From the NCBI RefSeq assembly GCF_028641065.1, contig NC_073378.1, positions 108,314,001-108,378,000 of the forward strand: a DNA stretch of 64,000 bases, written 5' to 3'. A model generated the notes under the pieces. The model did not search any database. It was not told the origin of the DNA and was given only the letters and a program-made list of their open reading frames with translations. Origin of the DNA: Leucoraja erinacea. Lineage: Eukaryota. The position numbers were made by a program, and so were the translations under genes. Below, in pieces: positions 1,669 to 64,000 of the stretch (the stretch's first letter is position 1; every line of letters begins with the position of its first letter).

Positions 1669-1746
1669 GTTACTGAACGTGCTCAGGGTTTCAGCACCTG
1701 TTGTCTCTACACTGCCCCCTGTGGCAGCCACTCGCAACGTAGTGGG

Positions 1747-1782
1747 CAAAGATCCCGGAGGAGCGCTCCTCTAGGATCTTTG
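1747..1782. mobile_element. 36-bp palindromic micro-element (hAT-like), 8-bp TSD gtagtggg
   Basis: caaagatcccggaggagc/gctcctctaggatctttg flanked by identical 8-mers. Confidence 0.75.
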
Positions 1783-1947
1783 GTAGTGGGTGACGTGACG
1801 GACGTCCGGCGGAAGGGTTTTCCGTGCGTGCCGCGTCATTAATCCCGTGGTTTCGCCCACGCCCACGCCCACTGTGCCGCTGCCGCTGCCGCCGTCGCGG
1901 GGTCGGGTGAGGATTTGTTTTGCTCTCGTCGCCCCATCTCCGTCGCC

Positions 1948-22949: not shown

Positions 22950-23597
22950 GTGCCTATTGGTTCTTAAGCTTGCAAATCAATGTCTATTGGTTCTAAAGCT
23001 TGCAAAAAAATGTCTATTGGTTCTAAAGCTTGCAAAAAGTGTCTATTGGTTCTAAAGCTTGCAAAAAGTGTCTATTGGTTCTAAAGCTTGCAAAAAAAAT
23101 GTCTATTGGTTCTAAAGCTTGCAAAGAAATGTCTATTGGTTCTAAAGCTTGCAAAAAAATGTATATTGGTTCTAAAGCTTGCAAAAAAATGTCTATTGGT
23201 TCTAAAGCTTGCAAACAAATGTCTATTGGTTCTAAAGCTTGCAAAGAAATGTCTATTGGTTCTAAAGCTTGCAAAAAAAAATGTCTATTGGTTCTAAAGC
23301 TTGCAAAAAAATGTCTATTGGTTCTAAAGCTTGCAAAAATATGTCTATTGGTTCTAAAGCTGGCAAAAATATGTCTATTGGTTCTAAAGCTTGCAAAAAA
23401 TGTCTCTATTGGTTCTAAAGCTTGCAAAAATATGTCTATTGGTTCTAAAGCTTGCAAAAAGTGTGTCTATTGGTTCTAAAGCTTGCAAAAAATGTCTATT
23501 GGTTCTAAAGCTTGCAAAAAGTGTCTATTGGTTCTAAAGCTTGCAAAAAAATGTCTATTGGTACTAAAGCTTGCAAAAATGTCTATTGGTTCTAAAA
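22950..23597 (+). repeat. Minisatellite, about 22 x ~30 bp (aaatgtctattggttctaaagcttgcaaaa)
   Basis: Directly visible tandem units differing mainly in A-tract length. Confidence 0.97.
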
Positions 23598-28000: not shown

Positions 28001-28601
28001 TATCTGCGCTTCTGCATGTCAACGTGTTTTCACATGTGCTATCATAAGCGTGTGGTCACCTCTGGCTGTTGTTCTTCCTTTTCCAACGGTGTTTTCTACG
28101 GCAATCGATGACCTGCACTTTGAAACATTGGTATAAAGAGTAACCAGATCTGATTTGTACAAGTTCTTAAACTTTATGAAGTTCCACCCGCTGCTGATTC
28201 TGAAGGGTCCCGGACAGAAACATCGACTCTGTCAATTTCCTCTACAGATGCTGCCTGATCACCGACTGACTCCATCACTTTGGGTTTTACTCAAGTTTCC
28301 ATCTCCTTGTGTCTGCAGAATCGAGTATGACTCCTCTCTTGTTGACGAAATATATTCACCCATTTCCGTTCTATATATAAACATTAATCCCCGAGGTAAA
28401 AAATCTTTATCTCGTTGTAATTTATAAGGTTCCCAGCTTGCCTTTAATCACTACAGAAATAGGAGCACTCGCATTCATTGGTTCCGTGTTAAATTATAAC
28501 ATGTGCCTAAGAGACATAAAGATATTTACCGTGTTTATTTCGGTGCAGCCCCACCTGCACATTTTAAGGCAGTTGTCTCTGGGCCGGGCGGTAGTCAGCA
28601 T
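24903..28601 (-). CDS. Uncharacterised small Cys-rich (putative zinc-binding) protein with Lys/Ser-rich tail, at least 100 aa; last exon unresolved
   Basis: Three phase-0 exons with consensus splice sites (28601-28530, 27437-27333, 25025-24903) give MLTTARPRDNCLKMCRWGCTEINT-TYMCKWCGTRYCKECGKGEFVGEMSAPTKCRVCFE-WKCQGPLVEFSPKGKSTQPIRKEKSGKSKSTSTKKSIKSTK with no stops. Confidence 0.8.
27333..27437 (-). CDS. Cys-rich gene exon 2 (three CxxC pairs)
   Basis: cttcttcctctttttgttcag acceptor; GAG|GTGAGA donor; 105 nt open. Confidence 0.85.
28530..28601 (-). CDS. Cys-rich gene exon 1
   Basis: ATG at the edge of a GC-rich patch; ACG|GTAAAT donor. Confidence 0.72.
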
Positions 28602-29799
28602 TTGTTGAGAGCGGGGCTTGGGGCTGGGGCCGGGCCTGGGGCGGGTGCAGTGCGAGCCCTGGCCCTGAGCCGGCTTGATGCTGAGCCAGTGCGGTCTGTG
28701 TCGGCCGCTGCCGCTGCTGCTCAAGACTGGCTTTCACCTCAAAACAGTCTGTGACGTTCACACCGACATGGCGCCGGTGGTGTGAACATATCGACAACTT
28801 GATTTATTTCACAGAAAGGCAAATGGGAGTCGCAACATGATCCGTCCAATATTTTGGTGCATTTCAAATCCGTGTTCAGCACGGCACAGTGGCGCAGAGG
28901 TAGAGTTGCTGCTTCACAGCGCCAGGCACCCGGGTTCGATCCTGGCTTCGGGTGCTGTCGGGTTTGCATATTCTTTCTGTGACCGCGTGGGTTTCCACCA
29001 AGTTTGTAGGTTGTAGATGCGAATAATGCGAGCATTGGGGTAACGTAGAACTAGTGTGAACGTCTGCTTGATGATGGGCATCGACTCGGTGGGGCGAAGG
29101 GTCTGATGTATCTTTTGATAAACTAATGTTGATAACCCTCAATGCAGCACGGGAGATCCAGGAGCTGCTGAAGACCCAAGAGTTTTCCCGCTGGAGAACA
29201 TGGAAAGTCAAAGCGGGAGGAGGAATAGTTAATGTAGTTTAATATAGATAAGTGTGAGATTTGGCATTTTGGGAGATCAAACTTAGGCAGCTCCTCCACA
29301 GTGAATGGCAGACCGCTGGGGGGGGGGGGGGGGGGGGGGGGTTATAGAGCAGAGCGATCTAGTAGTGCAGGTGCATAGTTCCTTGAAAGTGGCGTCACAG
29401 GTAGATAGCGTCGTCAAGAAGGCTTTTGGTACTTTGGCCTTCGTCAGTCATGGTATTGAGTATATAAGTTGGCATGTTATGCACAAAAAAAGCTGTAGAT
29501 ACCAGAAATCTGAAATTAAAAAAAATATTTTTCGCAAATATTGTCTGACCATCTGACTGATTTTGACATTTTCTGTTTTAATTTCAAATTTCCAGCATTT
29601 AATTTTATGTTTATATTTGTTAAAAAAAAAAAACATTATTTGATTTTGTAGTTTTTTAAATTGTAATTGTCGCTGTTTGGTTCAAAATTGAATCTGAATC
29701 TGAATCTGAATCTGTTTGGTGAAGGAGGACGTGATGCCTAGAACAGTTGCTCTCCTTGTTTGTGAGGATGCTGGGCTGCATGGACCAGGAAACCCTTTG

Positions 29800-30380
29800 C
29801 CCCCTCCACTCCACTCCCCCATGAGCGCCCGGGACCGGGACTGGGTCTGCCCCGCACAAAGATGGCGGCCACTCCACTCCCCCATGAGCGCCCGGGACCG
29901 GGCCCGGGACTGCCCCACACAAAGATGGCGGCCGCTCCGGAGCTCCTTCAGGTCCGCGCGGCCCATCATTTCCGCCACGACGCCGGTGTGGGCGCGGAGC
30001 AGCGATGGCCGGCGACGTGGTGGGACTGACTCTGATACACGGTAATGATGCCCAGGCTCACAGTGGGGGCCGTGCATTGCCCACGGTGACTCTCCTTCCT
30101 GCTGCAGCAAGAGCTGCCGTTGCCGAGTGAGCACAGGGCGGCAGCAGCAGCAGCGCGTGGGCATGACCCGGGGACCCGGGGACCCCCAGCCCCAGCCCCA
30201 GGGCAACTCCAGCTCCAGCTCCTGCTCCAGCTAAAGCTCCAGCTCCTGCTCCTGCTCCTGCTCCTGCTCCAGCCCCAGGGCAGCTCAAGCTCAAGCTCCT
30301 GCTCCTGCTCCTGCTCCTGCTCCAGCTCCCGCACCCGGCACAGCTGCAACACTTCTGCAGCAGAGGGCGACTGGTGCAGA
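29800..30380 (+). promoter_or_regulatory. BAG1 CpG island with a 63-bp tandem duplication, each copy carrying a YY1 motif (AAGATGGCGGC)
   Basis: Units start at 29806 and 29869; (ctcctg)n-like low-complexity tract at about 30200-30330 in intron 1. Confidence 0.7.
30005..30041 (+). CDS. BAG1: BAG1 exon 1
   Basis: gcgATGG; [12 protein letters not shown](G)|gtaatg. Confidence 0.85.
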
Positions 30381-41351: not shown

Positions 41352-41450
41352 TTACCAAGCAAGTCTGTAGCTGTGTGGAAATATCTTCTTGTGAAGATAT
41401 TCTACCATCTCCTTTTGGGTCTGCAGCTTGTCAAATTCATAGAATGGAAT
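41352..41450 (-). CDS. FASTKD3: FASTKD3 last exon (end of RAP domain)
   Basis: tccag|[32 protein letters not shown]. Confidence 0.9.
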   Translation of the reverse strand: MPFYEFDKLQTQKEMVEYLHKKIFPHSYRLAW

Positions 41451-53400: not shown

Positions 53401-54966
53401 TATTTCACAATAAAATAATTACTTTGGTAATTATTTTTATTCAAGAATGAATGAAAGATGACTTTGGTACCCCTGAACCTGATGGTAACTAAGGTATGAA
53501 AAGGTTGTAATAAAACAAGTAGGCTCACCTTCCAGCAGCTGCAGAAAGTAGGGACTAAAGATTTTGGACACAAAATTCACAGGAAATCGTCCTATTAATA
53601 TACAGGAGTGAAGTAAGTTCAGTAGAGTTCGAGGCTGGAATTGTGAAAATCGTCCCCTTAATAGGTCTTCAATCTTTCGAAACAGCTGACCTACATTTGG
53701 AGGCAAATAATTTAACCTGCCAAATGGCATTATTTGTAAGGCAATTTCTTTAGTTGTAAAGTTGTCTGAATTGTAAACAAAACTCTCAGCAACTGCATCA
53801 AATATGGGTGGTGAAAGGATCCGCTGCTGGTTGCAATGTTGCATCATCTTACTGATTGCTTCGGGCTGCATGACAAAGGCTTTTTTCGGGATATTTTGCT
53901 CCAGGGCATTAATAAAAAACCTGTCGCTGAGTCCAAAGCATATTAGAGCGTTCAGTACTATTATGAGCTCCCGGTCTGAGAAATGAGGAACATGTCGTAC
54001 TGAATGTTTGCAGAGATTAATTACCAAAGGAATTGCTTGGGTTTGCTTGAGAACAACCATTGCATTGAGTATGTCGCATTTGGCTTTATGGCTCATTCTG
54101 GAAGCTAAATGAAGGGAACGAGAATTCATTTTGTTTAGCAGCTCCTGGTATTTTCCTCCTTTTCCCACGCCAGCCACCAGCAGGTTATAAACCATTGGTA
54201 GCTCTTCAGATGTCCAGTTCTCCAATGTCTGTCCTTGAACTTGCTCCATTATTTCCTTTAATGTTCCACATTCTGGGCCCTCCAAATTCAGCAGAGCCTC
54301 ACCCAGCAAACACAAGTCCTTAATGAGCATCTGACCTTTGCCAAGCCGCTCTTGACTTTCGCACAACATTCTCGTCATAAGTCTGCTTTGCGGGTCAACG
54401 TACAATTGGATACAGGCATACAGTGCAGTAACCAACGCCGTGGTGCTCAGCCTCTGAGACTCCTGCTCAAACTGGAAGCACAAAGCCTTGACTGTCTCAT
54501 TCTCCAGCAGGATTGCAGACTTTCCCAGCTCATTCTCATCCGTTTCAACCTGTGATATTTTAAGCAAGGCAGAAGCAGCCATTGTGTCTGTAATGGACTT
54601 TGAGGATTTCAGTAGTTTAAAGATCTGTTTGGCTGTTTTACTAATGTTCAAATATTTTAAAAAGTTCTGTTCGTAGGACAACTGTTTGCTGCCCATCTCC
54701 AAATTGGCCGCAGCATCTCCATGAAGGCACACTGTCCCTGAAGTGAAATCAGGCTGATCCCTGATCACACTGTGGTATCCGTTATGAGGGACCCATTGAT
54801 GGCACATCTTTAGACATCCTGTCGATAAAATCGGGCCATATTGCGGGTACAGAATTTTGTTAAAACGTTTGCAAGGGTACAATTTCCATTTCATAATTTG
54901 TAAGATGTTGCAGGTTTGAAATTTAGATGAAAGGAAATCAAAGAATCTTAACAAATTCAATGCCAT
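41352..54966 (-). CDS. FASTKD3: FAST kinase domain-containing protein 3, mitochondrial
   Basis: Coding exons 54966-53529 (479 codons; [20 protein letters not shown] motifs), 47366-47281, 46052-45878, 42988-42919, a corrupted exon at about 42339-41550, and 41450-41352 ([24 protein letters not shown]...W*). Non-coding first exon ends at 56980 (CG|GTGAGG). Confidence 0.9.
42919..42988 (-). CDS. FASTKD3: FASTKD3 exon
   Basis: [23 protein letters not shown]; donor position uncertain. Confidence 0.8.
43111..44065 (+). mobile_element. Non-autonomous Helitron
   Basis: 5' A|TC...tattactaaaa; 3' hairpin gggaccca-a-tggatccc (44038-44054) followed by CTAG|T; no TSD. A further isolated 3' end lies on the - strand at 62044-62066. 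Confidence 0.75.
44198..44508 (+). mobile_element. HE1-like V-SINE of sharks and rays
   Basis: tRNA-like head (ggtggcgcagtgg; ggttcaatcc), central tgcgtggg..tttctcc block and (taaac)n tail; an internally deleted copy lies at about 28877-29125. Confidence 0.75.
45878..46052 (-). CDS. FASTKD3: FASTKD3 exon
   Basis: [15 protein letters not shown]...[20 protein letters not shown]. Confidence 0.92.
47281..47366 (-). CDS. FASTKD3: FASTKD3 exon
   Basis: [29 protein letters not shown]|gtaagg. Confidence 0.9.
48300..52760. mobile_element. Degenerate CR1 fragments in opposite orientations (+ 48300-49940; - 49950-52760, interrupted by the Rex1-like LINE)
   Basis: [16 protein letters not shown]-like and endonuclease remnants. 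Confidence 0.7.
50232..51437 (+). mobile_element. Rex1/Babar-clade LINE, 5'-truncated, RT with a stop and a frameshift
   Basis: [13 protein letters not shown]...[11 protein letters not shown]...[10 protein letters not shown]...KFADDT; AATAAA + (ATT)n tail; other fragments at about 6230-6730 (-), 39270-39410 (-) and 46398-46828 (+). Confidence 0.88.
53529..54966 (-). CDS. FASTKD3: FASTKD3 large first coding exon
   Basis: ORF-track 509-aa ORF, ending at donor G|GTGAGC; acceptor 12 nt upstream of the ATG (exon begins 54978). Confidence 0.93.
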
Positions 54967-56559
54967 AGCAGCAGCTTCCTATGACAAAAAAGGAACAAAA
55001 ATGTGCTTTAGGAATAGCGAAAAGGTCCATGCACAAATGCACTGTAGTTATAATTTGCAGTTATTTTTAAGAAAGTCAAAGGATGTAAGTTGAAAACAAA
55101 TTACATACTCTTAGATATTTCCATAATATAATGGCCTAAACTCAAGATTTAATTAATAAGTAATGACCAAAAATATATCTCCATATAATCTTTATCACAA
55201 TAATTTACAATTTCATTTGTACAATCATTGCTGATAGAGAATCAATAACCTGGCCCAACATTACAGCATGGAAATAGGCCTTTCTGCCCAACTCATCCTG
55301 GCCAACAAAGACGCCACATTAAAATAGTCCCATATGCCTGTGGATGGCCCATATTCCTCGAAATCCTTTCTTTCCAATGTACCTGTGTAAGTGGTTTAAA
55401 TGCTCTTAAAGTACCTCCCTCAACTACCTCCTCTGACAGCTCATTACATATAAACCAGTATCCTCCGAGTTAAAAAATTGCCCTTCACTTTCTTTAAATC
55501 CTTTCCCTCTCATCTTCAGCCTGTGCCCTTCTTGATTCACTGATCCTGGGAGAAATGAGTTTAAATATCTCTATAAGAGCACCCGTCAGCCTCCTGCACT
55601 ACAAGGAATAAATTCCTAGCCAACCAAACCTTTCCAGAAAGCTCAGGACCTCGAGTCCTGGCAACATCCTCGTAAATTTTCTCTGCACTCTTTCCAGCTT
55701 AACAGCACCCTTCCTGTAGCAAGAAGACAATTCTCCAACTGAGGCTCAACAACATCTAGTGCAACTGTAACATAATATCCCAACTTCAACTTCATGTTCA
55801 ATTTTCAGGTGATGTGAAAACTGGTTGTGCTGGTGATAATGTGGAGGGTAGTCTTTGCCTCTAAATGAATTGGGAAGACAGAGCAACAGCAGGTGGAATT
55901 TAATCCTAAAGTGATCTAATGCATATTGGAAAGAATCCTTAGGCTAGGATATATGTGATGAATGGTCAGACCCGAGGAAGTACTGTGGAACTGACACATC
56001 TTCAAATAGATGCCCAACAATCCCTGAGAACAGGTAGATAACGGGTTTTAAATGAATATTGGGTATTTGCTTTCATTAGGAATAGAAAGAGTACGTAATG
56101 GTGCAATCTTTGGTTGGACCTCAGTTGGAATATTGTGTGCAGTTTACGTGCAGCACATTACAGGATGGGGATGAGTGCATTGAAAAGGGAGCAGAGTAGA
56201 TCCTCCAGGCTGTCACCTGGGATTGAGGGGGGACTGGATGTTTCCCTTGAGGCAGACATGGATCCTGGTACAAGTTTACAAAATGATGTGGGGCATGGAT
56301 TGGGTACACTGCAAGAGGCTTCTCCCCCACCAGTGGGAACAGGATTTCGGTGAGGATTAGAGATCTGAGGATTAGAAGATTTTTTTTCAGTGGGATGAGG
56401 CTGTGGGTTGAGGGTGTGGTTGAGGCAGAGGCTTTGCGATATATCTGGACATTGACATTGGAGGAGATGGATCAGCAGTGGGTTGGCATGGGGATGATGG
56501 GGATAGGGCCTGGACCGCTCGGATTCTCTCTCCATGGATGTTGCCTGAACTAGTTGATG

Positions 56560-56945
56560 TAACCCCCCCCCCCCCCCCCATTTCTCACTCAGACCACCTC
56601 TCTCTCTACCCCACCACACCCCCCCAAAATCCCACCTTCTCCCCCAACCCCCCCCCTCGCCCCCACCCCATCATGCCCGATCCACCCCCATCCGTACTCC
56701 ACCACCAATGCCCCGCTCCTGCCCCCAACAGTCCCCCACCCCATCCCTACTCCACCCCATCCCCACTCCACCCCCCATCCCTACTCCACCCCACATCCCC
56801 ATCACTACTCCACCCCATCCCTACTCCACCCCATCCCTACTCCACCCCCCATCCCCCATCCCTACTCCACCCCCCCATCCCTACTCCACCCCCCATCCCT
56901 ACTCCCCCACCCACCCCATCCCTACTCCACCCCATCCCCCATCTC
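56560..56945. repeat. C-rich minisatellite (ccccatccctactccac)n in FASTKD3 intron 1
   Basis: Directly visible; source of the spurious Pro-rich ORF. Confidence 0.9.
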
Positions 56946-57105
56946 ACTCCAAACCCCGCACTCGTCCCCGGATCCTCACCGGTGCATCCGCGGCGCCGAC
57001 GGCCAACCGATAGCCTTCCCCGAGTTCCGCTCCTCATGTCCATAAACTGAGCGTTTCCCCGGAGTTTACAGCGCGGCGGACTGACGGCGTTCCCGCAGTT
57101 TACAG

Positions 57106-57125
57106 CAAAGATCATAGAGGCTTTG
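57106..57125. mobile_element. 20-bp micro-element of the same family, TSD gtttacag
   Basis: caaagatcatagaggctttg; perfect 8-bp TSD. Confidence 0.7.
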
Positions 57126-57165
57126 GTTTACAGCGCGGCAGGCGGCGCTGTCTCACAGTCCCCAA

Positions 57166-57199
57166 CAAAGATCCTAGAGGAGCTCCTCTAGTATCTTTG
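57166..57199. mobile_element. 34-bp palindromic micro-element, TSD gtccccaa/gtccccac
   Basis: caaagatcctagaggag/ctcctctagtatctttg. Confidence 0.72.
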
Positions 57200-57225
57200 G
57201 TCCCCACACCAGCCCCCGTTGGAAG

Positions 57226-57242
57226 CAAAGATAGGATCTCTG
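57226..57242. mobile_element. 17-bp micro-element of the same family, TSD gttggaag
   Basis: caaagataggatctctg; perfect 8-bp TSD. Confidence 0.65.
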
Positions 57243-57992
57243 GTTGGAAGTTGCTTCCACCAGGAGTTATGGTAAAAAAAAACACTGTTGGAGGAACTCA
57301 GTGTCGAGAAGCAAATGTGAAGGCAAAGGGTTGATCAACTTTGCTGAGCGCTTTCACACGAGAAATAAGGCGCCACACGGTGATCTGAAGGAGAGGGATT
57401 TAACAACCAAATTAGTGAAATACCAGCGTAACCCAAATAATTCAGCACTCCTTTGCAGCTATTGCATTCTCTGTCTTTGCGGTCATTGCAACAGCAGAAG
57501 ATACTCACAATGCACGTTTGTGCTATACATTTCATCTAACATGAAGACACAGGAGACTGCAGATGCTGGAATCTTGATCAAGAAACAAAGTGCTGGAAGA
57601 GCTCAGATGGTCTGACAGCTTCCGTGGAAGGAATGGGCAGATGCCGTTTTGAGTAGGGATTCTTCATCAGACTGATGGAGTGGGGCCTCAAGTTCGGTAA
57701 GAAGTAGGTGTAGGACAAAGCCTGGCAAATGTGGGCTAAATGGCCTGTTCCTTCCTCTACCTTACCGTTCCACATGATACAGGTGAGGAGTGTTTGATGT
57801 TGGTTATCAGATGGGTGATAGGGGTTACAAAAGATGGAAACATAGAAACATAGGTGCAGGAGTAGGCCATTTGGCTCTTCGAACCAGCACCGCCATTCAA
57901 TAAGGTGATTTCACGAAAGGTCACTGGAGCGTAGATCCGCACCCACGTGACCGAAAATTTGAAGTCAGCTGTCAGCTGTCAATTGGACAAAA

Positions 57993-58237
57993 TTAGGACA
58001 TTTTATTATTTTCCAAAATATATTTCTCAATGTTTCTTGTTTAAAGCCTGCACATGCACATTCACCCAAACTACTTATTTATTTATTTCTTTACCATCGA
58101 ATACATTCCATGCTGCAGGCTTGTCTGTTATTAGATGATAAATAAATAAATAAATAAATAAGTAGTTTGGGTGAATGTGCAGGCTTTAAACAAGAAACAT
58201 TGAGAAATATATTTTGGAAAATAATAAAATGTCCTAA
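57993..58237. repeat. Long near-perfect inverted repeat (~90-bp arms) inside a DNA-element insertion that interrupts a CR1 tail
   Basis: ttaggacattttattattttccaaaata... versus ...tattttggaaaataataaaatgtcctaa. Confidence 0.85.
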
Positions 58238-58499
58238 GCCCTAAGAGGTAAATCTAACTCTCTCTTGAAAACATTCAGTAAATTTGCCTCCACTGCTTTC
58301 TGTGACAGAGAATTCCACAAATGCACAACTCTCTGGGTGAAAAAGTTGGAAGATGAGCTTCATTTACGGATCATGTTAGCACGGAAAACATTCCGCCCAC
58401 CCGGCACACAGATAAAACTCCAGCTGTTAATATCTTCAAGGTATGTGTTGGCTCACTCTGTACTGCCTGCATCATTTGGCATATCTTCCCGCATGTTTT

Positions 58500-58940
58500 A
58501 GCAGAAAAGTTACAGATAACAGCGCCCTGCACCGCCCGAGATAGCCCCAGCACCTACGTCACTGATCCTTGCCGGGAACTCCCGACACCCGCCTGACGTC
58601 ACCGCGCTGCACCCGCCTCCCCTTCGCTCATTGGCTCACTACCGTCGTCCTCCAGACGCGATTGGACAGTGGTGCTGTCCATCAGGGGGTGGGCGGGCCA
58701 TTGCGCACTTCCGCCTGGTGTCGATGTTGCGAGTGAGTGGAACGTTGAGTGTATCCAGGGGGAGTTCCCATCTACTCTCACTGCTCACACACAAGCCGCT
58801 CATCACCAGCCGTGCCGCCCACTGTCGTCTCTCTCAACCCAGCGGGGTTCACTATTGTATATCGTTTCTCAGCCTGAGGGCACTTCTTCCCGCGGCTCCC
58901 ACGAAAAGGACATTTGTCGTAATCAGTCCACCAACGTAAG
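58500..58940 (+). promoter_or_regulatory. Promoter and probable non-coding first exon of a divergent + strand gene (possibly MTRR, which is head-to-head with FASTKD3 in mammals)
   Basis: Full CRE tgacgtca at 58594, two ATTGG boxes, GC box, ETS cacttccg; donor AAC|GTAAGT at 58936. No MTRR coding exon was recognised in the window. Confidence 0.5.
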
Positions 58941-59179
58941 TAACACACGTGTAGGAAAGGAAGTGCAGATGCTGGTTTACACCGAAGAAAGACACAAAGT
59001 GCTAGAGTAACTGGCAATAACTGGAGTAAGTCAGGGTCGGGCAACATCTCTGGAGAAAAGGAGTAGGTGACATTTCGGATCGCGACCCTTCTTCACCTAT
59101 TCCTTTTCTCCAGAGATGCTGTCTGACCCACTGAGTTACTCCAGCTTCTTGTGCCTATCTTAAGTGACAAGGTTTCAAG

Positions 59180-59207
59180 CAAAGATCCTATAGCTATAGG
59201 ATCTTTG
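59180..59207. mobile_element. 28-bp perfect palindromic micro-element, TSD gtttcaag
   Basis: caaagatcctatag/ctataggatctttg. Confidence 0.75.
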
Positions 59208-59241
59208 GTTTCAAGGCCAGTTTATTGTCACATGTACCAAT

Positions 59242-59608
59242 AAGTGAGTTTGGTATTCCGAAAAACGCAAGGAATCATGGGATTTGTCAAAGGTCACTCG
59301 CGATAAACACCCCCCGACAACCGTGCCGCCGCATGCACATGGACCCGCGCCCAATCACAGCCAGGTCGAACCGCCACTGTACCGTCCCCGTTCCGGCCCC
59401 CGGAGCGCACCATTCCCGTCCGGGGGCGACCGGAGACGACAGGGCCACCCCGGACATCCATGGCCGCCCCCGGACAGGGACGGGACACCTGGGAGGGGAC
59501 GGGTACAGCCCAGCAGCAACTCAACAGTGCCAGAGACCCAGGACTGAGAATGATTATCGCGAGTGACCCATGATCTGAGCATGTGCAGTCGGAATACCGA
59601 ACTCGCTT
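59242..59608. mobile_element. MITE with 20-bp TIRs and AT duplication (ISL2EU/PHIS-like)
   Basis: TIRs aagtgagtttggtattccga / tcggaataccgaactcgctt; inner 15-bp IR at 59292-59306 and 59554-59568; the uninterrupted host site accaattaaggtacag is seen near 32248. Confidence 0.65.
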
Positions 59609-61044
59609 ATTAAGGTACAGTGAAATTCGAATTACCACATGTTGTTTCTGACGTACTGACGGCTGCGGTTTATGCTGCATTGAGTTTGGGATTGTCGATG
59701 ATGATTTGCCAGGGTCCACTTGTCATAAAGAATTTACACTCGTTTGAATCACACTGTAACTTAATAAATTGCAAGGGTTATGCCTCCAATTGTGTAGGGA
59801 GTGTGTAAAACTAGTGTGTGAATGGATGATGATTGATGGTGGGGCATGAACTTGGTGGGCCGAAGGGCCTGTTTCCATGTTGTATTTTTAAATTAAACAC
59901 CACCTCTTTTTACCCTTTCACCTCTGCTTTATTCAGCTTTACTACAATCAGTACCAGGAAAGGTTCCCAACCGAAACTTTGCCGGTTCATTCCCTCCACA
60001 AATGCCGCCTAATCCACAGTTCTTTTAGCAGTTAATGTTTTGCCAGCTGTATTACTTTATTCAACCAACATGAATGATGATTACAGACGATTTTTATAAT
60101 AAACTACAAATTATTTAACAAACTGCAGTATTATGTAATTTCAATTGATCAATATGGATGTCTTTATGTATTTTGGGGAGATTAGTGAATTGGGCGGGGA
60201 AGGGAACACTGAAGGAAAGGAGATTCAGACATGGGAAGGATTGGTGATAAGACAGAGTTGAAATGAGGGTACACAAAAATGCTGGAGAAACTCAGCGAGT
60301 GCAGCAGCATCTATGGAGCGAAGGAAATAGGCAAAACTTCGGGCTGAAACCCTTCTTCAGACTGATTTTCCAGCATCTGCAGTTCCTTTTCAAACACAGT
60401 TGAAATGAGGGTGGGCAGTGTTCTGTTTCTGATCACTGTTTAAAATATTTAGAAATAACAGCTGTACACATTTCAACTGTACTGAGTTGAAATCTGACCC
60501 AGTTTCTTCAGCGCTGTGTGGTACTGTAATAGATGTAACTTATCATCTCAGAGCTGATGTGTTTATTGTTAGTAGATGCACAGCAGTATCAGCCAACATT
60601 CATCTGGGAGAACTTTTCTCTCTGATTGTTGGAATTTAAGACTTGCTCCAGAGAAGAAAGAGCTTGAATCCAGGCAGCAGACTCCAGTATGGGAATGCCA
60701 TTGTTTTGGAGATGTCATTTTATACATGAGGTTTTTCAATTGAGTTTCTAATGATCGTTTGGCTCGCGTGGAAGATTTTATGGAGATAATTCAACAGAAA
60801 ATGTGGCATAATTTTCTACAGCATTCTTCGCAAATTAGTTGAACACCACAGAACTTTACACAGGGCAATATTCATATTATTTAATAGTGAACACAAGGCA
60901 ATACTCCAAAAATGTGTTGAAAGGAAGCGGCTCTAAGGAGAGTAACAAAAACATGGACAAAGGCCATTCTGCCAAGGTAGCTAAAAACATGGCTATCGAT
61001 AGAAGGTTGATTTTGTTTATTACTCTGCTAGTTTTATAATTCTG

Positions 61045-61735
61045 TTTAAACCAAGCCAGGATAGACACAAAAAGCTGGAGTTAACTCAGCGGGACAGGCA
61101 GCATCTCTGGAGAGAGGGAATGGGTGACATTTCGGGTCGAGACACTTCTTCAGACTGGTTGGGGATAAGGGAAACGAGAGATATAGACAGTGATGTGGAG
61201 AGAGAATGAACAATGAATGAAAGATATGCAAAAAAGTAATGATGATGAAGGAAACAGGCCATTGTTAGCTGTTTGTAGGGCGAAAACGAGAAGCTAGTGT
61301 GACTTGGGTGGGAGAGAGATAGAAAGAGAATGAATGCCGGGGCTACCTGAAGTGAGATAAATCAATATTCATACCACTGGGCTATAAACTGCCCCAGCGA
61401 AATATGAGATGCTGTTCCTCCAATTTTCATTTAGCCTCTCTCTGACAATGGAGGAGACCTAAGACAGAAAGGTCTGTGTAGGAATGGGAAGGAGAATTAA
61501 AGTGTTCAGCAACCGGGAGATCAGGTTGGTTCACACTGGATGAGCGAAGGTGTTCTGCAAAACAATCGCCCAGTCTGCGTTTGGTCTCGCCGATATATAA
61601 GAGTCCACATCTTGAACAACGGATCCAGTAGATGAGGTTGGAGGAGGTGCAAGTGAACCTCTGCCTAACATGAAAGGATTGTCGGGGTCCCTGGACAGAG
61701 TTGAAGGAGTAGGTATAGTGACAGGTGTTGCATCT
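61045..61735 (-). mobile_element. Penelope-like element 3' fragment (GIY-YIG endonuclease remnant plus terminal repeat)
   Basis: 61735-61343 translates to RCNTC...RQRFTCTSSNLIYWIRCSRCGLLYIGETKRRLGDCFAEHLRS...HFN...LEEQHLIFR...GMN with stops. Related fragments at about 44540-45220 and 62110-62435, plus many short terminal-repeat pieces. Confidence 0.85.
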
Positions 61736-64000
61736 TTCCTCCTCCTCCCTCGTTTGTTTATTTCCTTCTCCCTCGTCTCTGCACCTGCAGTTCCTTCTTA
61801 AACCAAGCCTGGGTTCTTATGATTTTTCATTACCTGATCTGGAGGCATTTGCAGAAAACCTGAGAAGAACTCTTGCTCTACTGGGTGTGCATTACGGTAA
61901 ATCAAGAACAGAGGATTCACAGTCACACAGCTTGGAAATAGACAGTTTGGCCCAACTTTCTCATACCGACCAAGACGCCTCATCTATTCTAGTCCCACCT
62001 GCCTGCGTTTGGCCCTTATATTCCTCTAAATCTTTATTATATACTAGACCAAGTGGGACCCGTTGACCTCCCCCCCCCTCCTCCAACAACAACAAAGCAA
62101 ACATAAAATGTAGATGGGGACAGTTAGACCGGTCAGAGAACTGGGAAGGGGGAGGGATGGAGAGAGAGGAAAGTAAGGGTTACTTGAAGTTAGAGAAGTC
62201 AATATTCATACCATTACGGTGTAAGCTGCCCAAATGAAATATGAGGTGCTGTTTATTTTCACACCTTACACTTCCTTATCCATGTGTCTCCCTCTCCCCT
62301 GACCAGTCTGAAGAAGACTCGACCTGAAACGTCACCCATTCTGTCTCTCCAGAGATGCTGCCTGTCCCGCCGAGTTACTCCAGCTTTTTGTGTCGATCTT
62401 TGATTTAAACTAGCATTTGCAGTTCCTTCCCACACAAAAAGGTGCTTTTATTGAATTGATATGACAGATTAATTGCAAAGTATATACAAAGTACTGAACT
62501 TATTTACTAAAGACAAAGATTGCAGGCTGTCAGTTCACAGTGCAAGGCCACATAAGAGATTTGCTCGGCAAATTGACAAGGCAATATTTTCTATTTATAA
62601 TTGTACAACTTTCAGCTGTTTGAAAAAATATATATCCATTTCTAATTAGTTAAAGTACCAACTTCCTTTTTTGCCTACAATACAATCAGAATCCATAGTG
62701 TACAGAGGGTGCACTGTGGAAACATTACCATTCAGAGAAAATATTTCACACAGGAATGTATCTTCACATCATATGGGATTCAATAGGAGGGAAAATGGTT
62801 AGCATTTAAAAAAATTGTGATTATGGACCCCTTCATATTCATAGTTTTCAGAGGGTAGTTGATAAGGTGCTAAAGAAAGGTACTCTGAGAATATTAAAAG
62901 CTCATGTTAATGTGTTGTGGGTGGAAGATTAGCGACCTGACAGAAAACAGTTTATTTTTTGTTTAGTCTTTGGCACCAAATGATATGCCACAGGGTTTGA
63001 TGCTGGGTACCTAAAGTTTCATAATTTATAAAATGACTTGTATACAGGCAACATATATAGTTATGAAATTTGCTGACAGGTAGGAAGATGCATTGTGAAG
63101 AGATCACAGTGAGGTTACCAAGGCATGCATGTTGCTTGATTAAGTGAGTGGTGGTAAAAACAGCAAGATTTTCATTGTACCCGTACCTCTCAGTTCTAGT
63201 GCATATAATCATAAACATAAAACTTGTTTTGATTGTATATTAATGTAGCTATATTGAACAAGTGGCATCACAGTGATGATACAGTGCAAAGCGTTTAGCT
63301 GCATCCAATGCACTCAACTGTTTTTGATATTATATGTTGTTTTTAATTGACTGAAGTCAGCCTTCAATAATGGTCAGCTTTTTAGGAAGCGTTTGAAATA
63401 GATCATTCTACTCAAAATCTTTTCTTGTAAGTGCTCTGGTCTTATTTTTCATTAACACTTTGGATTTTGCCACATGTTGAAAGTTAGAATGTTCTGGAGC
63501 CTCCTAACTCCAATGCCCTACCCCCACCCCAGTTACTCAAAATCTCACGTTATTTAATTGTCCACAACGATCAATGAGATCCAGCAAATCTACATTAAAA
63601 TGAAGGATCAATAAGCATAGACAATAGATTTGAATTACAGGAGCCCATAACTTTCAAGTGAGTTGTTGAAAGGCTGCAGGAAATTACTGAGATGGGAAGC
63701 TCATGGAGGGGTTTGGGAAAATAAGGTTGAGAATTTTAAAATTGAGCTGTGCTTAATCAATGGCTGGATTACTGAAACAAGGTATTGAGTCATTTCCCTT
63801 AATGGTACTTGAAGGACCAAAACCGCAGCTACCAATTTGGCTTGAGCAAATTGTTCGTGCATTTTCAGCACTGCAATATTGACTACACTTAAACAGAACT
63901 TCAGGATATTATTTTTTATTAAGGCTGCCATTGGGGTGCAAGTTTATTTTTTGCATGCATTGCATTTATTGAATAAAGTTCTGCAACTGGCTCAATGGTT

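Follow-up and report, generated by a model that had tools for sequence, protein, structure and literature searches.

The window analysed here, a 64-kb stretch of skate DNA, contains FASTKD3 on its reverse strand. The identification was confirmed by a 513-aa frame (53437–54978) with 92% identity to Rhinoraja longicauda, 84% to Pristis and 78–80% to other rays. Exon 1 splices from 56980 to 54978, as judged from the N-terminus of a 99%-identical protein (P0001), and a transcription start was not found in the ~5% of RNA run X24 that was read. Within exon 1 (57006–57041, minus strand), upstream ATGs lie in a different frame from the main ORF and, judged from sequence, make uORF control of FASTKD3 possible; an in-frame TTG in the same exon would lengthen P0001 by 11 residues. 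The start of intron 1 is occupied by a C-rich minisatellite with a 16–18-bp unit (56560–56950), G-rich on the transcribed strand, and a 30-bp minisatellite of 21.5 copies lies elsewhere in the window (22954–23596).

The 5′ part of FASTKD3 falls in a CpG island (Table 1), and ~1 kb away lies a second island (58251–59900) with a donor-like GTAAGT near 58936. This second island is probably the promoter of a divergent gene, possibly MTRR by synteny; the stretch 61722–62063 had no match in the PDB. Between the two islands stands a 245-bp foldback element (57993–58237) with arms of ~100 bp (67 nt at 99% and 39 nt at 97%), which is MITE-like and unrelated to the inserts described below. Towards the start of the window, a Snf7-family gene, presumably CHMP5, has its ATG at 1948; a PDB match for its 23-aa exon was spurious. 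Further CpG islands (28401–30250) lie upstream of a BAG1-like exon. Rfam gave no match in 56000–60000.

Table 1. Inserts and associated features, in coordinates of the window
Feature	Position	Strand	Description
Scar 1	57098..57133	no strand	20-bp remnant 57106–57125, TSD GTTTACAG on both sides
Scar 2	57158..57207	no strand	34-bp palindrome 57166–57199, TSD GTCCCCAA / GTCCCCAC
Scar 3	57218..57250	no strand	17-bp remnant 57226–57242, TSD GTTGGAAG on both sides
Scar 4	1739..1790	no strand	36-bp palindrome 1747–1782, TSD GTAGTGGG
Scar 5	59172..59215	no strand	28-bp perfect palindrome 59180–59207, TSD GTTTCAAG
Copy 1 of ~34-bp tandem duplication	57046..57079	no strand	single GTTTACAG; empty paralogue of scar 1
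FASTKD3 first coding exon	53437..54978	-	open frame from acceptor at 54978
FASTKD3 exon 1, 3′ part	56980..57035	-	splice donor after 56980
CpG island with scars 1–3	56501..57500	no strand	from the CpG-island scan of the window

Three short inserts between 8-bp direct repeats (scars 1–3) sit 126–262 bp upstream of the FASTKD3 exon-1 donor, with bases and positions exactly as an earlier note on this DNA had given them. Two more were found in the window, scar 4 at 166 bp upstream of the ATG of the Snf7-family gene and scar 5 inside the island 58251–59900. All five carry an 8-bp TSD and CA..TG termini; the TSD pairs are perfect in four, and that of scar 2 has a mismatch of one base. Scar 1 lies in copy 2 of an old tandem duplication, and copy 1, which has no insert, reads as an empty paralogous site, so that the former proposal of a motif at 57064 as the empty site for this insert is plausible.

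A family-agnostic scan (12–60 bp, CA..TG ends, at least 5/6 terminal bases inverted, 8-bp direct repeat with at most one mismatch) returned six matches in the 64-kb window, namely scars 1–5 and one unrelated match at 41432, and five of the six start with CAAAGAT. Block-wise dinucleotide shuffling (n = 100) gave 0.51 matches on average and 3 at most, with zero matches starting in this way.

All five scars fall in CpG islands, which make up 12.2% of the window (p ~0.002 when scars 1–3 are counted as one of three independent clusters, a value that describes one window only). The islands at 28401–30250 have zero scars. The suggestion that the parent element targets promoters agrees with the placing of the inserts in promoter CpG islands, on evidence drawn from this one window.

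To place the inserts in a wider context, contigs of three related organisms (A, B and D) and RNA reads of organism A (4 of 24 runs) were aligned to 56950–57540 at 80% likeness. In organisms A, B and D, 284, 288 and 224 contigs aligned, with depth by far greatest on the 34-mer of scar 2. Unrelated flanks end exactly at 57166 in 66, 56 and 55 contigs, respectively, and the eight letters before this position have the consensus GTTTTGAC, GTTTTAAC and GTCCTGAC, equal to GTnnnnAC in the three organisms. Among the contigs in the four loose-end rows listed per run, the 3′ flank continues with GT in 38/77, 46/71 and 28/53 (A, B and D), the GT background in the window being 5.7%. The window copies start with GT in 5/5 cases, with T at position 2 in 5/5, A at position 7 in 4/5 and C at position 8 in 0/5. 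The genome-wide family envisaged in the earlier note was thus recovered, dozens of different flanks piling up on the 34-mer in three related organisms. Peak-to-locus depth ratios were ~1090, 690 and 1110 (A, B and D), to be read as an order of magnitude only and not as copy number. We conclude that the family is genome-wide, with a GT...AC target preference and a copy number very roughly of 10^3. The 34-mer is the prevailing form in the pile, without a centre indel reaching 5%, in an alignment that favours the reference length and gives no length distribution; recurring end variants (n = 3) have CC, AC or TA at positions 8–9.

RNA of organism A contributed 186 aligned reads; nearly all of them cover the 34-mer and derive from other transcripts. 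The dominant transcribed copy is flanked on either side by ATATGAAC, so that the RNA reads supply an independent 8-bp TSD. In our own reading, repeat-looking sequence comes after the most abundant RNA copy, so not all copies need be promoter-linked. A sequencing or assembly artefact was rejected because the insert family is found in the DNA of three organisms and in RNA. One contig in each of A, B and D (at 57181–57200) contains a complete right end, ~10 letters and another right half, which suggests a shared locus with two adjacent scars and the existence of other hotspots.

At the FASTKD3 site itself, a single contig of organism B spans the stretch with 13 substitutions and 48 gap letters (net +28), and contigs of organism A cover 57173–57540. 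Organism D, at ~5% substitutions, shares scars 2 and 3; at scar 1 its contigs stop matching partway through, leaving 33–50 letters unaligned. Contigs of organisms A and B with 57240 C>T render the right end of scar 3 perfect. No empty orthologous allele was seen among the three organisms. Since scars 2 and 3 are common to relatives, these two insertions predate the splits and are therefore old. Orthologous inserts in distant species had been put forward as a sign against insertion, and such sharing was found in part, for inserts 2 and 3 in relatives of ~95–99% identity; as the sharers are close relatives, it dates the events and does not refute insertion. In organisms B and D the scar 1 site seems to be longer, and its 20-bp form may be a later deletion. 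A contig of organism A fits only the TSD, a 19-bp insert and the TSD of scar 1, with its flanks absent, and a contig of organism B has the same one-base gap in scar 1; these 19-bp-insert contigs possibly come from another locus that carries a scar much like it.

Each insert consists of two transposon ends (at most 17–19 nt each) placed head to head, and internal sequence occurs in none of the five window copies. Their lengths are 17, 20, 28, 34 and 36 bp and they comprise two end types, scar 5 having the second. The ends of the 34-mer divide as 17+17 blunt or, with a common GC at the centre, as 18+18. The 36-mer can be split into 17+CG+17 or into 19+19 with CG in common, the 28-mer into 14+14 or into 15+15 with GC in common, and the 17-mer into ~7+12 with AT in common. 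The 20-mer reads as 15+5, with ~15 nt of one end and 5 nt of the other. Because the CG centre of scar 4 is also present in an organism-B contig, a templated CG is favoured. With the parent TIR absent, tail length is 17 or 18–19 nt depending on the reading, and some metagenome arms reach 24. Good hairpins are formed by the 28-, 34- and 36-mers (z −8.7, −4.9 and −4.0) and poor ones by the 20- and 17-mers (z −1.3 and −0.2).

We propose, with a probability of roughly 0.65, that the inserts are end-joining excision scars of a promoter-homing element of the P superfamily (THAP9-like). Excision scars were one of two options in the earlier note, and they are the best reading of five copies that all have two short ends between TSD copies. 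Under this proposal, a cut-and-paste P-superfamily family would have been active in the germline of a skate ancestor. Insertion at GT...AC-biased sites, five of them in the CpG islands of this window, created the observed 8-bp TSDs. Re-excision with a long staggered cut, modelled on the fly enzyme, would then leave 3′ tails of ~17–19 nt of each TIR. End joining would fuse these tails, usually through 2-bp microhomology at a palindromic dinucleotide, which in the junction shapes observed would be GC for 34 and 28 bp, CG for 36 bp and AT for 17 bp, with the 20-bp form arising after trimming. The resulting scars would be immobile, and three of them in 150 bp would mark a repeatedly struck insertion hotspot.

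The fly P element offers the closest published counterpart. According to the passages cited, its transposase makes a 17-nt staggered cut (PMC7776569, PMC10983969) and prefers ATRGTCCGGACWAT as target (PMC2577343), and it prefers promoters (PMC7776569), a habit that may be mirrored by the location of the five window scars in CpG islands. Fly P junctions consist of the 8-bp target, at most 17 nt, an overlap or insert, at most 17 nt and the 8-bp target again (PMC2895639, Table 1). In the same table, palindromes with AT and TA overlap, represented by 14 and 5 isolates, are the commonest outside the long-microhomology class, and the skate 34- and 36-mers parallel them. Both systems keep the two 8-bp target copies with short TIR pieces head to head (PMC2895639, PMC7776569, as excerpted), and both have frequent 2-bp microhomology palindromes, CA..TG ends and a GT..AC-type target (PMC2895639, PMC7776569, PMC2577343, likewise). 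Unlike the fly junctions, the skate scars are natural, old, shared between species, vertebrate and many-copy; their TIR sequence is different, their arms may be 18–19 nt rather than 17 nt, and no transposase was seen in the sequences searched.

The same ends were sought in metagenomes with a pattern comprising the exact outer 11 bp on both sides and at most 30 bases between, which is blind to remnants of >52 bp. This yielded 51 loci in 38 flank clusters. With at most one mismatch, the TSD is 8 bp in 11 loci and 7 bp in nine, two of which share flanks, and one locus has an exact 9-bp repeat; the background rates are 0.09% (8-bp) and 0.29% (7-bp), and 30 of the 51 loci have no clear TSD. TSDs of 8 and 7 bp are those known from the P superfamily, which favours the P proposal. 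TSD length tracks end type: in the 8-bp group the end mostly runs on into TAGGCC, in the 7-bp group mostly into TAGCG or GAGCG. Eukaryotic genes (tetraspanin, DC-STAMP, PHD) lie near several loci, and at least two loci (L046, L047) are bacterial or phage DNA, probably matched by chance. Perfect arms of 23–24 bp (L007, L012, L025, L035) may mean that other P-like families cut with a longer stagger; arms of 24 bp exceed the 17 nt of the fly and so call for a longer cut or a measure of repair synthesis. These long arms, the loci with no clear TSD and the small number of flank clusters weigh against the P proposal.

Other metagenome loci (L011, L024, L026, L030, L038, L043, L048, L051) have the same 11-bp ends around telomere-like TAACCC repeats of variable number, with similar flanks and the TSD absent; here, repair perhaps captured telomeric sequence inside a multi-copy repeat. 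Shared flanks further place remnants inside other repeated elements (L001, L003, L023, L033 and L034; L005, L009, L017 and L049), so that a scar can gain copies passively. Single ends matched 30, 0 and 5 times in viral contigs, where the search with 0 matches covered one of the two metagenome end types only; a further 31 viral matches were paired look-alikes, and prokaryote genomes gave 17 single-end matches. A TSD-flanked pair of ends occurred at 0 of these 83 viral and prokaryote loci, which were accordingly taken as chance matches, and a looser pattern found a TSD in 0 of the 31 viral look-alikes.

Pfam searches covered 122 of the 129 window ORFs of at least 84 aa, FASTKD3 and six overlapping frames being left out, and 92 of the 167 ORFs of the metagenome loci. 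They detected no P, THAP or hAT domain; the single MULE match among the metagenome ORFs searched was in L050. The parent element was not found in the 64-kb window or in the metagenome, viral and prokaryote loci searched.

Two further groups related to P were compared. Zebrafish Pdre2/THAP9 is likewise vertebrate, with a CA-starting TIR and an 8-bp TSD, but its 13-bp TIR differs from the skate ends beyond CA, and the cited parts of its description deal with full-length and internally deleted copies, not with TIR-only scars (PMC10983969). In cell assays, zebrafish THAP9 produced larger flanking deletions and no integration (PMC10983969, same parts), which counts against the P proposal. Galileo/1360 resembles the skate family in its GT..AC palindromic targets and, through its 7-bp TSD, some of the metagenome remnants, whereas the skate copies all have 8-bp TSDs and the long foldback TIRs are absent (PMC4168063, PMC3698922, in the portions cited).

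Among the other explanations, we judge it unlikely that the 34-bp palindrome moves as a unit of its own, a micro-MITE made up of TIRs only and amplified in trans, of which the shorter forms are deletion products. Such an element would agree with the >200 contigs per organism that contain the full 34-mer, sharply bounded and without a centre indel of at least 5%, although the alignment selects for reference length. The 34-mer is also a stable hairpin, and the longer scar 1 in relatives indicates that secondary deletion may happen. Against this stand the forms of 36 and 28 bp, which differ in centre and end type, and junctions at palindromic dinucleotides, as end joining predicts. A MITE would be expected to have two TIRs split by internal sequence, which none of the five copies contains, and fly P transposase first binds internal 10-bp sites that are absent from the 34-mer (PMC10983969, in the part cited). 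The minimal mobile hairpin proposed in the earlier note may apply to the 34-mer; the 17- and 20-mers do not match it.

It is likewise improbable that the parent was a hAT or other element with an 8-bp TSD whose remnants, the outermost bases only, come from abortive gap repair off the sister chromatid. The 8-bp TSD, predominant in hAT elements (PMC5499845, as excerpted), the nTnnnnAn bias and the CA..TG ends are all hAT-like. These features fit hAT and P equally, P making 8-bp TSDs and Galileo/1360 7-bp ones (PMC3698922, PMC4168063, in part), and it weighs against the P reading that TSD length and bias do not separate the two. The repair pathway itself exists, incomplete synthesis followed by end joining being common after fly P excision (PMC2895639, in the section cited). 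However, hAT enzymes hairpin the flanking DNA upon excision (PMC5499845, as above), so TIR ends should not remain at the donor site, and all five sites keep them; flank hairpins should also disturb the TSD, yet four of five pairs are perfect. Abortive synthesis should, as we infer, give broad lengths rather than arms of at most 19 nt in 5/5 copies, and the metagenome relatives with the same ends include 7-bp TSDs. The hAT label given in the earlier note is probably wrong, as the order TSD, short TIR, short TIR, TSD is that of the published P excision product (PMC2895639, same section).

Conserved transcription-factor sites or chance palindromes can be set aside as very improbable: inserts 2 and 3 do occur in related organisms and the five copies do lie in CpG islands, but each copy has its own 8-bp duplication, which already contradicts this explanation, dozens of unrelated flanks stop at one base, shuffles never yield the family and an empty paralogue lies next to scar 1.

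Returning to excision scars of a P-superfamily element, such products are already known from fly experiments. Searches of the open literature, outside subscription journals and Repbase/Dfam, gave no account of similar scars in skates or other vertebrates, and the 11-bp end matched in four papers, all with unrelated titles; the parent family may be catalogued in Repbase/Dfam or in subscription journals. The wider reading, in which ~10^3 fixed P-type scars are concentrated at CpG-island promoters in skates and retain a readable, family-specific overhang, is more doubtful, and we put it forward tentatively. If true, the scars would form a fossil map of germline open chromatin and show directly that integration and re-excision with a long staggered cut were both the work of a vertebrate P/THAP9 transposase. 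The overhang would then be ~19 nt in skates, ~24–25 nt in the metagenome families and 17 nt in flies, so that the cut position of P would vary, and the scars would constitute a steady, unmasked source of promoter sequence. Remnants of 17–36 bp are probably below repeat-masking thresholds and may, as a result, be mistaken for lineage-specific promoter motifs in work on skate gene regulation. A natural vertebrate scar set would extend the long staggered cut and promoter homing beyond flies, reveal the cut position with no need for biochemistry and preserve the way in which a vertebrate germline repaired long non-complementary 3′ tails.
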